Assembly (NCBI GenBank): GCA_021107915.1
Contig: JAIORY010000231.1
Span: forward strand, 1 to 37,549
DNA: 37,549 nucleotides
Direction of reading: 5' to 3'
Source of the DNA: Bacteroidales bacterium
GTDB lineage: Bacteria; Bacteroidota; Bacteroidia; Bacteroidales; JAIORY01
Shown here one piece after another: positions 3,271 through 13,452 of the stretch (positions are counted from its first letter, which is position 1; every line of letters starts with the position of its first letter). The notes beneath the pieces were generated by a model. That model ran no database searches. It was not told where the DNA came from and saw only the letters and a list, made by a program, of their open reading frames with translations. The position numbers and the translations under genes are program-made.

Positions 3271-3383
3271 ATGTCTGTCCATAAAGTCAATCATATTGAT
3301 AAAATTTTAGATTTATGATTTTAAATTTTAAATCTGAATTCTAAAATCTTAAATTGTTAGAGCGTGATTTTATAGACCGGCAC
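3271..3383. mobile_element. 113-bp MITE-like element with imperfect terminal inverted repeats and 5-bp TAAAT flanking duplication
   Basis: Ends atgtctgtccataaagtca / tgattttatagaccggcac (14/19 complementary); TAAAT at 3266-3270 and 3384-3388; inverted partial copy at 13372-13452. Confidence 0.7.
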
Positions 3384-3410
3384 TAAATAGTGTTGTTTCA
3401 CTTTATATAC

Positions 3411-3881
3411 TTACAATCCCGCACTAATTAAAAACGTTGCTGCAAAGGCAATAATTGCATATAATTCAGGGAATACGGCAAGTACCATTGTCTTTCCGAA
3501 AATATCGTGCCCTGAACCTATACCTGCAATTCCTGATGCACAAACACTGCCTTGTTTTATCCCTGACATAAGTCCGACAAATCCTAAAGCAACTCCCGCT
3601 GCAAAAACTGCAACTCCCTGATATATCGATAATGTCAAAACTCCATCAACAACCATCTCTGAAAGCTTTGTGTTGATAATAAAAAATCCTGCAAAACCGT
3701 AAAGTCCCTGGGTTCCTGGCAATGCGCTTAATAACATATAGCTCCCGAAAGCCTCATCATTTTTCTTTAAAGCTCCTATCGTGGCATTTCCGCCCGATGA
3801 AACACCTATTGCACTTCCTATGCCGGCTAATGTAATCATTAATGCCAATCCTACATAGGCAAGTATTACTGCTGTTGTCAT
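3411..3881 (-). CDS. ntpK: V/A-type ATPase rotor subunit K (Na+-binding signature)
   Basis: Four-TM duplicated c-fold; [18 protein letters not shown] match the NtpK Na+ site. Confidence 0.95.
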
Positions 3882-4097
3882 AATAATTCTCCTTTTATAA
3901 TTTATTAATAATTTATTTTTATTTTATTTATAACTTTTCAGTACCTAAAATAATTAGTTAACTTTAAGTACTCTTATATAACTAAACAGGTTATTTCTTT
4001 CTGAATTTTAAATTCATCATTTTAAATTTTAAATTTCTTTCAACAATGCAAAATGTAGAATTTTAAATGCAAAATGTAAATCATTCTATTTACTCTT

Positions 4098-5888
4098 TTA
4101 TCCCGAAAAGGGTTTATATTCTTTTCCTCCACCTGTAAACCCGGCATTTTTATAAAACTCAACAAATGTGAGTCGCATAGGATGAACAAACGATCCGAGT
4201 GATGATATTAATATATTTAAACCATGTCCGAGTATAAGAAATATTACAAAAAACACAGGTCCTAATATCGGTGATGAACCAAGTATTTGCATTGCAATAT
4301 TATTTATTACTAACCCTAAAATACCACTTGACAAACCTAATGCAAATAAACGGATATATGATAACAGGTCGCCGAATATTCCGGTTACCGTTGAGTAAAT
4401 ATCCCAAACCCCTTTTCCTATACGAGCAGGAATACTGATTTCGACATCGCTAAAAAATATAATTAAAAATCCGCCAAGCGAAAGAATTGTATATAAAATA
4501 ATATTGTTTGCGGCTATATATTCTAACTTTGTTAAAGCTGCATAAATTCCACCGCCTATTAAAATAATGAGCCATCCAAAAGTTGCAAGTGAGTGCATGA
4601 ACCCATATTGTTTTATCTGATTTGCTGCTTTTATAAACATCCCGAAAATAATTTGTAATGCACCAAGTGCTAATGCCAGATTAAACATGTTGTCGGGATT
4701 AAGAAACAAGTCTTTGTAATTTGCAAATAATTTGGTATTTTCGTCTATTAAATCTATGCCAAATAATGTTCCAGAAATAATCCCAAATATAATGGTTGCT
4801 AAACCAAGAAATTGTACTAAAGACAATATTGGTTTAATTTCCTTTTTTGCCTTTAATTTATAAATACCTGCTCCAATCACAAACAATAATCCATATCCGG
4901 CATCGCCAAGACAAAAACCGAAAAACATCATAAAAAATGGGGCAAAGAACACAGTTAGATCAAGTTCGGAATAAGCCGGTAAAGAAAACAATTTTCCGAT
5001 AGGCTCGAACAATTTACTAAATCTGTTGTTTTGTAACAAAACAGGAACTTTATCCTTTTTTGTGGCTTTATCAATTATGTGCAAAATGTTGCTTTTATCC
5101 AAAAAATCATCAATTTGTTTTTTCTTTGTTTTCGGAACCCAGCCTTCAAGTATTTTCATTTTTTCATCTGCTTCAACGGCAGTATTTAAAATAACTTTCT
5201 CAAATTCCAAATTTGTTGCTATTGCTTCTCGTTCCTGTATAAGCAATGGAATTGATGTTTCGGAGTAATTGTCAAAATCATTGTTTATCAGCGTAATTTT
5301 TTCTTCTATTTCTTTTATATGTTTTTCTATTTCAGAAAGGGAGCTTTCGGGTTGTTTAATTTCTTCGGCATCAATATTTAGTTTTTCATCGCCTTGTTGA
5401 ATAATAATAAAATAGATATGGTTTCCGCTTTCAGTAATTATTTCTGCATTGTATTCAGAAAGAAGTTTGGTGTTAAATTTCTTTTTAGAAGCGAGAAAAA
5501 ACTTCAGGTAAAAATTTTCATCTTTTAGCTTGTTAATAATTTCAGCAGAAAAATCACCCCAGGGTTTTATTTTTATAAGTTCTTTATGGGTAGTAGCAAG
5601 TTCTTGATGCAATGTATCTAATTCCTTTTGCTTTTGTATTATTTCTTCAATAATTTTCAATCCATCTAAATCAGGGCAGTTATCAGTTTTCTCCGTTTCG
5701 CGTTTTTCGAGGGACTTAATTATTTTATCAATGCGATTTACTAATTGATATTTTTCCTTGATATCATCACTGATTTCAGTTTCTTTTTCAATTACATGAA
5801 GCACACCAAGCTCTTGCAGATTTTTCAGAAAATCACCATATTCCTTATGATAAACAAGGAAAGAATATTTTTGCATCGGTATTATCAT
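4098..5888 (-). CDS. ntpI: V/A-type ATPase subunit I
   Basis: EGWVP, FFGFCLGDAGYG, SYIRLFAL (essential Arg), HPMRLTFVEF. Confidence 0.97.
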   Translation of the reverse strand: MIIPMQKYSFLVYHKEYGDFLKNLQELGVLHVIEKETEISDDIKEKYQLVNRIDKIIKSLEKRETEKTDNCPDLDGLKIIEEIIQKQKELDTLHQELATTHKELIKIKPWGDFSAEIINKLKDENFYLKFFLASKKKFNTKLLSEYNAEIITESGNHIYFIIIQQGDEKLNIDAEEIKQPESSLSEIEKHIKEIEEKITLINNDFDNYSETSIPLLIQEREAIATNLEFEKVILNTAVEADEKMKILEGWVPKTKKKQIDDFLDKSNILHIIDKATKKDKVPVLLQNNRFSKLFEPIGKLFSLPAYSELDLTVFFAPFFMMFFGFCLGDAGYGLLFVIGAGIYKLKAKKEIKPILSLVQFLGLATIIFGIISGTLFGIDLIDENTKLFANYKDLFLNPDNMFNLALALGALQIIFGMFIKAANQIKQYGFMHSLATFGWLIILIGGGIYAALTKLEYIAANNIILYTILSLGGFLIIFFSDVEISIPARIGKGVWDIYSTVTGIFGDLLSYIRLFALGLSSGILGLVINNIAMQILGSSPILGPVFFVIFLILGHGLNILISSLGSFVHPMRLTFVEFYKNAGFTGGGKEYKPFSG

Positions 5889-6490
5889 TTGTTTGCCTCC
5901 ATTTGTCGTTGCTGACGATCTTTAACAATTTTCTGTGACGATTTTGACAGGTTTTCTTCATCTTCCAAAAAACGTTTAATTTTTCTTATTGCATCTTCGT
6001 AGCCGGGAATTTGAACTTTTTCATACAAATTTACTTTTTGTGTCGTTTTTCTTCGTGCATGATTGAGCAATTCCATTTTTCTGTTAAAAAACTCTCTTTC
6101 TATTACAACCTCTGCTAACTCTTTTACAATTGAAATTCCTTCAGGAAACCATTTCGGGTTATCGAACAAACTGAAATCCTCAGTCTGAAGAAGTACTTCT
6201 TCTAAAACGGGTGTTTTTACCCCTGCAATTTTCTTTGTTGTTGTTTTTACATCATCAATTGTAATAAGGTTTGTATTAAATTCATTCCAAATACCCGGTG
6301 TTAAAGTATATGCTTGTATTTTTTGAGATAATTTTTTATCTAATTCTTTTACCTTGGTCTTTGCTTTTTTCACCTCCATACGTAATGCTGTTTCCTTATT
6401 TTTAATCACAGGAAGTGCATTCAACCTCATTTTTAATTGTTTATTAAGGCTTTGTAATGCTGTTTTATTATATTGAAATTTAATTGCCAT
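5885..6490 (-). CDS. ntpD: V/A-type ATPase subunit D
   Basis: RKTTQKVNLYEKVQIP motif; ATG start at 6490 (MAIKFQYNK); 4-bp overlap with subunit I. Confidence 0.96.
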   Translation of the reverse strand: MAIKFQYNKTALQSLNKQLKMRLNALPVIKNKETALRMEVKKAKTKVKELDKKLSQKIQAYTLTPGIWNEFNTNLITIDDVKTTTKKIAGVKTPVLEEVLLQTEDFSLFDNPKWFPEGISIVKELAEVVIEREFFNRKMELLNHARRKTTQKVNLYEKVQIPGYEDAIRKIKRFLEDEENLSKSSQKIVKDRQQRQMEANK

Positions 6491-12230: not shown

Positions 12231-12258
12231 GATAATTTCCTTTTTTAAAAAACGCTTG

Positions 12259-12266
12259 CAAAATTA
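12259..12266 (-). promoter_or_regulatory. Bacteroidetes -7 promoter motif upstream of the V-type cluster
   Basis: TAATTTTG (TAnnTTTG) on the minus strand, about 30 nt upstream of the start. Confidence 0.5.
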
Positions 12267-12315
12267 GTAAGTTTTTGCATTGTTTCTTTTATAATTGTTT
12301 CTTTTTTTTGATTTG

Positions 12316-13365
12316 TTAACCAACATTTATTACAGCCCAAACAATGTAAGCAACATAAAGCAGTATTAGAAACGCACCCATTTTTTTGCCTACAACCCAT
12401 TTGTTAATAATAAATAACCCAAACAAAACTGCCACGGAAGCCAAAAGAAACTGTACTGACATATTTAAATCATCAATATGCAGGCTGATATTCCCTCCGG
12501 TAATTAATATAATTAATAAAAAGGGCAACCCAAGTCCTATTAAAATATCAAATATATTCGATCCTATTACATTGCTGATAGCCATGCCGCCACGTCCTTG
12601 CTTAGAAACTACTACTGAAGAAATAAAATCAGGCACAGAAGTGCCGACTGCCAATACTGTAACTGCAATAACAGCCTCGGAAATATTTAAAATATGAGCT
12701 ATGCCTATAGCACTTTCTACAAGAACCCAACTTAATGCAGCTATAATTAAAATCGAAATAAAAAAGATAGCATAATATTTTTCAGGCTTTGGAAAAATTT
12801 TATCTAAAACAAAGTCGAACGGAGAAGTAATTTTTTTGACGAATTCCGATTTATCAATATTTTTTTTGACTTCTTGTTTTTCTTCATTCGGATCAACATA
12901 ATTGAACATTCTTCGCCAAAACACAACAACAATAATATATATAAGGTAAATACCAATAAATAACGCTGCATCTGTCCATTCTACTTTACCGTCTTTAAAT
13001 AAAAATATTAATAATAATATTGCAATTGCGTAAAAAACAAGGTCGCGGATAACTGCCTGCCAGGCAATCAGAGCTTTTCTTACAACTGCTATTGCACCTG
13101 TAATTGCCAAAATATTGAATAATGCTGAACCAACAATGTTGCCTATTCCAATAGCTTCATGGTTTCCTGGGCGCAAGACTGCAAAAAGGGCAATAAATAA
13201 TTCAGGTGCGCTGGAGCCAGCTGCCATTAAAGTTGCCCCAGCTGCATCAGATGACATTTTTAGTTTCGCTGCAATTTTATCCAGCGAGTCCACAAAATAT
13301 CTTTCAATAACTTTTGCTAAAAGATAAAACGACAGAAGCAAAACAATGATCAACAATATAAGCAT
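12316..13365 (-). CDS. Calcium/sodium antiporter (CaCA, YrbG-like)
   Basis: Alpha repeats GATLMAAGSSAPE and LAVGTSVPD; GNIVGS / NVIGSN; about 10 TM helices. Confidence 0.93.
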   Translation of the reverse strand: MLILLIIVLLLSFYLLAKVIERYFVDSLDKIAAKLKMSSDAAGATLMAAGSSAPELFIALFAVLRPGNHEAIGIGNIVGSALFNILAITGAIAVVRKALIAWQAVIRDLVFYAIAILLLIFLFKDGKVEWTDAALFIGIYLIYIIVVVFWRRMFNYVDPNEEKQEVKKNIDKSEFVKKITSPFDFVLDKIFPKPEKYYAIFFISILIIAALSWVLVESAIGIAHILNISEAVIAVTVLAVGTSVPDFISSVVVSKQGRGGMAISNVIGSNIFDILIGLGLPFLLIILITGGNISLHIDDLNMSVQFLLASVAVLFGLFIINKWVVGKKMGAFLILLYVAYIVWAVINVG

Positions 13366-13371
13366 AATTAT

Positions 13372-13452
13372 AATTTAAGATTTAAGAATTCAGATTTAAA
13401 ATTTAAAATCATAAATCTAAAATTTTAACTTTCAGACTTTATAGACCGACTC
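13372..13452. mobile_element. Partial inverted copy of the 3271-3383 MITE-like element
   Basis: 13372-13426 is the reverse complement of 3301-3355 (54/55); end gactttatagaccgactc matches the TIR. Confidence 0.75.

Follow-up and report, generated by a model that had tools for sequence, protein, structure and literature searches.

Inverted MITE copies at both edges of a V-ATPase block nested in an F-ATPase operon are probably separate insertions and not the vehicle of the block

We asked whether two inverted repeat copies that bound a V-type ATPase block inside an F-type ATPase operon had delivered that block, could invert it, or had inserted beside it independently. The window, a stretch of 37,549 nucleotides from a Bacteroidales bacterium, contains the F-type genes atpB (subunit a, 13456..14601, minus strand; Pfam ATP-synt_A, 3.4e-58) and atpE (subunit c, 2968..3228, minus strand; Pfam ATP-synt_C, 4.2e-16), the latter followed by atpF, atpH and atpA, which reach base 23. 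Between atpB and atpE lies a nested block of ~10 kb. It starts with a Na/Ca exchanger family gene (12316..13365, minus strand; Pfam Na_Ca_ex, 2.2e-53) and continues with a V-type ATPase operon (3411..12230, minus strand), in which Pfam matches identified the E-like (11619-12230), DUF2764/C (10572-11444), A (8604-10367), B (7194-8543), D (5885-6499), I (4098-5888) and K (3411-3881) genes, all on the minus strand, and a PD-(D/E)XK_3 gene (6757-7140) inserted within the operon. All genes of the locus share one direction of transcription. The block meets the F-type genes in two junction spacers, the left one (3229-3410) between the V-type K gene and atpE and the right one (13366-13455) between atpB and the exchanger gene.

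The original prediction held that inverted copies of one MITE-like element bound this block, and the copies are indeed there. A repeat search paired 3300-3355 with 13372-13427, complementary at 55 of 56 nt (98%), compared with the 54/55 first reported for 3301-3355 and 13372-13426. This pair was far ahead of the other inverted pairs in 3000-13800, the runners-up being the same arms shifted by an internal 7-nt periodicity. The matching, inward-facing ends that had been described just outside each arm were recovered as well (the outer 16-mers at 3273-3288 and 13435-13450 match in reverse complement at 14 of 16 positions), and each arm lies, as proposed, within its junction spacer. The left arm is part of a complete short-form copy (3271..3384, plus strand) with terminal inverted repeats (TIRs) at 3273-3288 and 3366-3381 and a core at 3300-3355; its boundaries were set by alignment with 22 other genomic copies, and nhmmer matched it at 3272-3329 and 3320-3384. 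Its target duplication, AAAT, lies at 3267..3270 with the partner at 3385-3388, inside a TAAATA direct repeat (3266-3271 and 3384-3389) that includes the TAAAT duplication noted previously. The right arm is part of a truncated short-form copy (13372..13453, minus strand) with its core at 13372-13427 and its outer TIR at 13435-13450. The inner TIR is absent, the copy stopping 6 nt short of the exchanger gene's start codon (ATG), and on the other side the copy adjoins the TGA stop codon of atpB (13456-13458).

The match between the arms is not due to chance, and the two arms come from a single dispersed repeat family. A genome-wide copy count, which the original prediction had called for, gave 74 loci by nhmmer (109 matches on 66 contigs of the 3.27-Mb draft genome, 42 full length) and about 115 places by BLAST with 3273-3381 (118 in all, including 3 on the duplicate contig C14). 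The 16-mer end occurred 148 times at up to 3 mismatches, versus 19-25 times in shuffles. The ends align across copies and form TIRs of roughly 19 bp. Copies measure about 100-160 nt, some about 215 nt, with a short form of ~105 nt and a long form of ~155 nt; no ORF was found inside the aligned copies examined, and in the interior 7-nt units are arranged in mirrored arrays whose folding gives an AT-rich hairpin. The target duplication is a 4-bp AAWT set in T-NNNN-A. Tn3-derived ends are about 38 bp long and go with 5-bp duplications. In the present family the 4-nt flanks were identical in 15 of 24 copies, a number reached in 0 of 5000 random re-pairings (mean 8.05), and flanks co-varied in 5 of the 11 copies with a non-AATT flank, where AAGT, ATTT and AAAT pairs occur. 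The family is also found in the genomes G001, G002, G026, G166 and G282. Being short and non-coding, with TIRs, a target duplication, dispersed copies and both occupied and empty alleles, the element qualifies as a MITE, and the term MITE-like was thus well chosen. The family is a new, uncharacterised and very abundant MITE common to two uncultured Bacteroidales genera.

The nearest published comparison is BrickBuilt, a MITE of Porphyromonas gingivalis with an interior of 23-nt tandem minisatellite units and 19 copies (PMC4596501). As far as the excerpted text of that paper goes, the two have much in common: both are short, AT-rich, non-coding, intergenic and multi-copy elements of a Bacteroidales host, with TIRs, an interior of short repeated units and no transposase remnant inside (PMC4596501). 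Unlike BrickBuilt as described in that excerpt, the present family has mirrored 7-nt hairpin arrays in its interior, a higher copy number (at least 74 loci versus 19), and ends without similarity to the TIRs in Table 2 of PMC4596501, as far as that table is shown.

Membership in a family of this size accounts for the pair. The arms resemble each other because both belong to one dispersed family, and not through a special mutual relationship; their cores are near-identical because each matches the family consensus, with 0-1 mismatch in 56 positions (none in the left core). The ends are 7-30% diverged from that consensus (2/30 and 6/27 mismatches at the two ends of the left copy), including the right outer end. 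Fresh cores beside decayed ends are not predicted by simple independent decay, and either gene conversion or selection may conceivably have kept the cores fresher. Related sequence also lies inside the block, as a partial core-like copy at 4004..4054 in the V-I/V-K spacer and a weaker one at 8559-8592 in the V-A/V-B spacer. These two spacers match 47 and 32 other genomic places, respectively, and 9 of the 11 locus spacers of at least 40 nt carry dispersed repeats, each matching 6-112 other genomic places.

Relatives that share the nest show the two sites in different states. In G282 the left site is unoccupied, with a single uninterrupted target copy and no element. In G002 the gap between atpB and the exchanger gene is just 9 nt, leaving the right junction without an element, and a metagenome contig in run X5 skips 13377-13457, again a right site without the element. 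The right-site element of G166 has the opposite orientation; G026 and G282 share the right-arm site, orientation and truncation with the window; and G026, G001 and G002 retain only remnants at the left site. An element or remnant was present at both junctions in most genomes examined, and it may be that both sites were already occupied in the common ancestor of the block. Both junctions were seen in G000 (the genome of the window), G002, G026 and G282, of which only G000 has both cores; G166 was seen at the right junction only and G001 at the left only. All of these genomes are fragmented MAGs. The locus as it was before nesting is not observable. In principle an empty site might be the product of a precise excision and not a site that was never occupied; in either case each copy is seen to have its own duplicated target. 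The caveat attached to the original prediction, that the left copy may have inserted independently, is therefore supported by its own duplication and by the empty left site in G282. It had also been stated that hundreds of genomic copies, or relatives with the same nest and no repeats, would speak against a role for the pair, and in substance both were found, in the form of 74-115 places together with repeat-laden spacers, and of the element-free junctions of G002 (right) and G282 (left).

We then compared divergence inside and outside the block. At four-fold sites between genera, 700 of 956 positions (73%) were identical in the block versus 377 of 923 (41%) in the flanks (Fisher 3e-46), and three other cross-genus pairs were alike in this pattern. 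Within each genus the block and its flanks were equal, at 79% versus 77% in one and 79% versus 82% in the other. The drop falls within atpB. Against G026, codons 1-192 were identical at 10 of 31 four-fold sites and codons 193-384 at 46 of 68, and sliding identity placed the cross-genus breakpoint at roughly 14030-14190. The exchanged segment reaches ~600 nt beyond the right arm into atpB. On the other side, atpE was already at flank level (38% of 42 four-fold sites identical to G026). The far lower divergence of the block and of the 3' half of atpB, compared with the flanks, is best explained if the block spread through homologous recombination in the atp genes. Lower divergence inside and a breakpoint in atpB are the marks of an island exchanged through flanking homology, and this exchange, as far as sequence comparison can tell, crossed a family-level boundary, since the two Bacteroidales genera belong to different families. 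The block was seen solely between atpB and atpE, in 4 of 30 loci in one survey, the locus of the window among them, and in 3 of 80 in another, and nowhere else in either.

The two arms are thus probably separate insertions of one high-copy, non-coding MITE, and the block was in all likelihood not delivered by them. Each insertion would have hit a spacer in which the nested block was already joined to the F-type operon: the V-K/atpE spacer for the left copy, and a target overlapping the atpB stop codon for the right one. The inner end of the right copy would have been lost later, probably through deletion between 10 nt of the element and an identical 10-nt stretch in the flank. Only one movement of the 10-kb block can be reconstructed, its passage between two Bacteroidales genera by homologous recombination, with one crossover presumably in mid-atpB and the other at or just before the atpE start, and the MITE sites would have travelled as passengers within the exchanged piece. 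The locus shows clearly how misleading repeats on the two sides of a gene block can be: the empty sites and the divergence profile mark these repeats as later passengers.

The original prediction had offered two more active roles for the pair, one being that of a non-autonomous composite transposon delivering the V-ATPase/antiporter cargo. The two inverted MITEs, acted on in trans at their outward-facing ends, would then have carried the block into the atpB-atpE spacer, in the manner of TIME-COMPs, which are units resembling composite transposons with a MITE at either end (PMC13367494, here and below as excerpted). Such composites are documented, including for resistance genes (PMC13367494), and, as in TIME-COMPs, whose two copies may be direct or inverted (PMC13367494), a gene set is bracketed here by two inverted copies of one MITE; the outer ends are present, and elements or remnants occupy both junctions in most relatives. 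If one unit had moved, however, a duplication common to the pair should be found, and AAAT at 3267-3270 stands against AATC at 13454-13457, a weak test given that targets are AT-rich and alike. Unlike the TIME-COMPs described in that excerpt (PMC13367494), the arms here come with target duplications and empty sites of their own (the left in G282, the right in G002), the locus shows no shared duplication, second location or cognate transposase, and the demonstrable transfer is homologous recombination, in which the exchange runs past the right arm into atpB. Delivery by a composite transposon is largely refuted by these observations, and we consider it very unlikely. Transport of an ion-pump operon by a transposon made of MITEs would have been a notable result; the evidence, however, points the other way. 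One contig joint in run X1 (depth 57) connects 13456 to 3272 with three letters between; we read it as a repeat artefact, although a circle junction would look identical in contig data. Contig C173 holds two MITEs back to back in the same end-abutting-end arrangement.

A mobilising enzyme was sought through the MITE ends themselves. No IS-length pair of ends enclosing a transposase was found in the draft of 461 contigs, where an IS may be unassembled, and no transposase gene lay between or beside such ends in the stretches searched. IS-length pairs occurred only at C238 (1398 nt) and C65 (4.9 kb); neither looks like the parent IS, the former holding a 343-aa ORF with a lipoprotein-like start and the latter ordinary-looking ORFs. 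For the 38 ends (at most 2 mismatches) outside nhmmer MITE matches, the longest inward ORFs were ordinary genes. Four matches to PF01609 (DDE_Tnp_1) were found, none with a MITE end at up to 5 mismatches within the stretches searched, and the PF00665 profile gave no match. C422 contains a whole IS of 1461 nt, whose 19-bp ends are unrelated to the MITE ends.

The second role proposed originally was that of a substrate for inversion, in which RecA-type recombination between the 56-nt inverted cores would flip the 10-kb block and switch its co-transcription with the F-type operon. Inverted repeats identical at 55 of 56 positions and 10 kb apart make this physically possible, and fresh cores with decayed ends would suit gene conversion between the arms. 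Yet all assemblies seen were collinear (C3 and its variant C14, G002, G026 and G282), and no strand-changing joint was among those shown from four runs, with 28 joints not shown and the evidence consisting of Logan contigs, which drop rare variants, break inside the elements (e.g. at 3322/3338 and 13421), bridge neither arm and are silent on inversion frequency. The arm pair is not conserved among the four genomes seen at both junctions, and no recombinase gene lies in or beside the block; Pfam found no recombinase domain in the 18 ORFs scanned between 23 and 18855. Inversion therefore appears highly improbable. On a further reading, compatible with independent insertion, the elements would persist at the junctions because their transcripts form RNA structures there, serving the boundary of nested operon and F-type genes as processing sites, stabilisers or insulators. 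All genes are co-oriented, the left element has a predicted fold of -24.5 kcal/mol (z -3.9), and the cores are better conserved than the ends, but the fold of the right element is no stronger than those of shuffled sequences (z -1.9), and the junctions are empty or decayed in relatives sharing the nest. An Rfam scan of 2600-14800 (E up to 1) gave a single match, to Ysr35, which at 25.3 bits falls far short of the gathering score (428) and which we took as chance. A terminator scan found 7 where 6.8 were expected, the background level. The sigma-70 promoter consensus is not the Bacteroidota one, and a scan with it was set aside. Overall we regard functional hairpins as unlikely. One variant of this idea would have the cores pair within one long atp transcript, forming a stem that brackets the nested V-ATPase message and frees its RNA from the F-type transcript, much like the RNase III-cut processing stems around rRNAs and intervening sequences. 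The computed duplex of the two spacers (-81.8 kcal/mol versus local folds of -14.5 and -28.6) would favour such a stem; both cores, however, are present only here of the four genomes seen at both junctions, and we give the model scarcely any weight.

With the arms read as separate insertions, the by-product of this analysis is more interesting than the repeats: an exchanger and V-ATPase module inside an F-ATPase operon that appears to have spread across families. Capsule and O-antigen loci are gene islands exchanged via recombination in conserved flanking genes. The nested block resembles them in its fixed site between core genes, its sharp drop in divergence and a breakpoint in a flanking core gene. 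Unlike those islands, it is flanked by atpB and atpE of one housekeeping operon, so that an ATPase operon lies within an ATPase operon, and it has been exchanged between genera of different families. An accessory module that nests in a highly conserved operon would find homology arms for its spread already in place.

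Every gene between positions 23 and 14601 of the window is carried on the minus strand. Along that strand, atpB (13456-14601) is followed by a Na/Ca-exchanger family gene (12316-13365), by a Bacteroidota-style V-type ATPase operon comprising E-like, DUF2764/C, A, B, a PD-(D/E)XK_3 insert, D, I and K (12230 down to 3411), and then by atpE, atpF, atpH and atpA (3228 down to 23). This gene order bears out the premise of the original prediction: a 10-kb block of exchanger and V-type ATPase genes sits nested inside an F-type operon, with subunit a on one side and subunit c on the other. 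A literature search, which is not proof of absence, found no publication on a V-type operon nested inside an F-type operon. The draft genome comprises 461 contigs (3.27 Mb, 31.8% G+C), and the window is the whole of one of them, C3. Another, C14 (23707 nt), copies positions 1-23470 of the window at 99.98-100% identity, the sole difference being three additional 79-nt tandem units near 6495-6681. C14 represents a variant of the window contig, due either to the assembly or to a second strain, and the two form the only such duplicated pair within the assembly. The PD-(D/E)XK_3 gene (6757-7140, within 6468-7224) lies between V-D and V-B and is bracketed by hairpin repeats of 7-nt units, of a GACAC.AAT-type family also present at 10389-10532. 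This cassette is missing from G002, a genome of the same genus whose V-B and V-D open frames overlap, and contigs of metagenome runs X1 and X5 jump over 6522-7196.

At four-fold degenerate sites, the eight block genes of the window genome (G000) and of G026, a genome from another family, were 73% identical (700/956), whereas ten flanking genes, including atpE, atpF, atpH, atpA and atpD, were 41% identical (377/923; Fisher 3e-46). The same pattern was seen for G000-G282, G002-G026 and G002-G282. Within genus, block and flanks were equal (79% versus 77%, and 79% versus 82%). Between the two genera, synonymous sites in the flanks have reached saturation, and the block with the 3' half of atpB (12316-14190, 3180-12230) is as similar between genera of different families as within a genus. 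The change in divergence falls mid-atpB, in sliding identity as well: codons 1-192 were identical at 10/31 four-fold sites against G026 and 11/32 against G282, versus 46/68 and 53/71 for codons 193-384. On the opposite side, atpE is as diverged as the flanks (identical at 38% of 42 four-fold sites), and identity remains 88-93% across the ~90 nt surrounding its start. This divergence profile places the exchanged piece from mid-atpB to about the atpE start, with both MITE sites inside it. The comparisons argue that the block was exchanged horizontally by homologous recombination in conserved atp genes, not by transposition acting at the outer ends. The passage of the nested block between genera, through recombination in atpB and at atpE, is of more interest than the repeats.

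The inverted, matching arms noted in the two junction spacers were confirmed, with complementarity at 55/56 positions between 3300-3355 and 13372-13427, and at 14/16 between the outer 16-mers (3273-3288 and 13435-13450). Their MITE-like identity is supported by ends, target duplication and copy number. The 16-mer end, at up to 3 mismatches, occurs 148 times in the genome versus 19-25 times in shuffles, and 26 of 29 inward-facing pairs span 67-308 nt. BLAST with 3273-3381 found 118 places in the genome, three of them on C14, and a profile from nine long copies gave 109 hits at 74 loci on 66 contigs, 42 of them full length and 15 within 200 nt of a contig end. In the alignment of copies, the canonical form is ~155 nt long, its ends measure ~19 nt and its interior consists of mirrored 7-nt units; a short form lacks ~46 central nt. 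The 4-base flanks at the two ends are identical in 15/24 copies (random re-pairing mean 8.05; 0/5000 trials reach 15), and they co-vary in five of 11 copies with a non-AATT flank (AAGT once, ATTT twice, AAAT twice). The repeats are a MITE family whose 4-bp AAWT duplication falls within T-NNNN-A. Five of six MITE features tested were found, and the sixth, a parent insertion sequence, was not found in the 461-contig draft. The element resembles BrickBuilt of Porphyromonas gingivalis in type, and differs from it in sequence (PMC4596501). Strong matches to the family occur in every sampled genome of the two nest-bearing genera; elsewhere matches were weak or none was seen. In all, 22/301 genomes matched (E up to 1e-6; only two candidates scored per genome).

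The left arm (3271-3384) is a complete short-form copy; its own duplication, noted as TAAAT, reads TAAATA on each side (3266-3271 and 3384-3389). The right arm (13372-13453) has the outer end and core, lacks the inner end and terminates six bases ahead of the exchanger ATG. The search for empty sites in relatives found one for each arm. At the right junction, G002 has nine bases from the atpB stop to the exchanger ATG, with a single target copy overlapping the stop codon, and one X5 contig likewise skips 13377-13457. G026 and G282 carry a short and a long form, respectively, with the window's site, orientation and truncation. G166, a third species of the other nest-bearing genus, has an element at this site in opposite orientation, with the exchanger-proximal end missing (L159, 1394-1533). 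The element contains a 10-nt string identical to the native flank of G002, and a deletion between this string and the matching flank would remove exactly the inner end that the right arm lacks. At the left junction, the window's flanking sequence is unbroken in G282, with one target copy and no element; G026 retains just the V-K-side end and target, and G001 and G002 just the atpE-side end and target, around a different hairpin repeat. Since the relatives' junctions are empty, decayed or opposite, each arm is an insertion into an already existing junction. The arm sites are recurrent targets, loss of the inner end at the right site recurs, and the inverted pairing is not conserved in relatives.

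The arms had been read as a composite transposon that delivered the block, or as a substrate for its inversion. Composites bounded by MITEs do exist (PMC13367494), but the window's pair lacks four of the five composite features tested. The bases outside the pair differ (AAAT versus AATC), a weak test since the targets are alike. A search for a transposase with the same ends found none within or beside such ends in the 461-contig draft, whose state limits the test. The genome's four DDE_Tnp_1 hits have unrelated ends; contig C422 (1461 nt) is in its entirety one insertion sequence, whose perfect 19-bp terminal inverted repeats are unlike the MITE's ends and whose 476-aa frame matches DDE_Tnp_1 weakly (E 1.8e-4). 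Delivery by a composite is not supported, because the junctions pre-existed and the exchanged piece runs past the right arm into atpB. Inversion, though physically possible with these arms, is not supported either: every assembly is collinear, and the joints listed for four metagenome runs (all but 28), compared as contigs, include none that changes strand.

Both arms' cores differ from the family consensus at 0-1 of 56 positions, versus 2/30, 6/27 and ~9/35 plus a 4-nt gap for their ends; family-wide, ends average 84-86% identity and cores 89-90%. Gene conversion by other members of the family could account for the fresher cores, and so could selection acting on the hairpin. The predicted RNA folds reach -24.5 kcal/mol (z -3.9) for the left element and -14.5 kcal/mol (z -1.9) for the right. 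Computed pairing between the two spacers is -81.8 kcal/mol, which any inverted pair would show and which is not conserved in relatives. Nine of the 11 locus spacers of at least 40 nt match 6-112 other genomic places, and two more spacers within the block hold core-like fragments of the same family. Spacers 2688-2967, 10368-10571 and 11445-11618 also carry dispersed repeats, with 11, 12 and 16 other places, respectively, and are polymorphic, metagenome contigs skipping 2780-2886, 10374-10583, and 11446-11620 or 11463-11615. The atpE-atpF spacer of G026 is shorter by ~200 nt.

In 40 relatives from the same order, 29 atpB loci were compared. The atpE gene adjoins atpB in 26, one of them with a PD-(D/E)XK_3 gene interposed; another locus is truncated where its contig stops, and two, in G002 and G026, have the exchanger and V-E adjoining atpB. 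Small insertions seem to enter the atpB-atpE spacer time and again. The interposed gene lies at 901-1501 of L006 (G011), in another family of the order. An exchanger-based search of 401 genomes found the nest only in G000, G002, G026 and G282, and a one-genome-per-species scan found it in 3/80 loci (L074-L076), which may overlap the other nest genomes and so are not independent. The V-K/atpE junction was found in G001, G002, G026 and G282. V-type subunit I occurs in 116/301 genomes of the order, its nearest copy beyond the two nest-bearing genera being 74% identical. Among eight V-I loci examined, atpE follows V-K only in G282; the other seven all lie outside those genera. In another genus of the order (L170 of G053, 2910-2992, and L067 of G188), a weak MITE-like match sits just past V-K; there V-I and V-K are succeeded by an exchanger gene of 50% identity, so the exchanger and the V-ATPase are linked, but in a different order.
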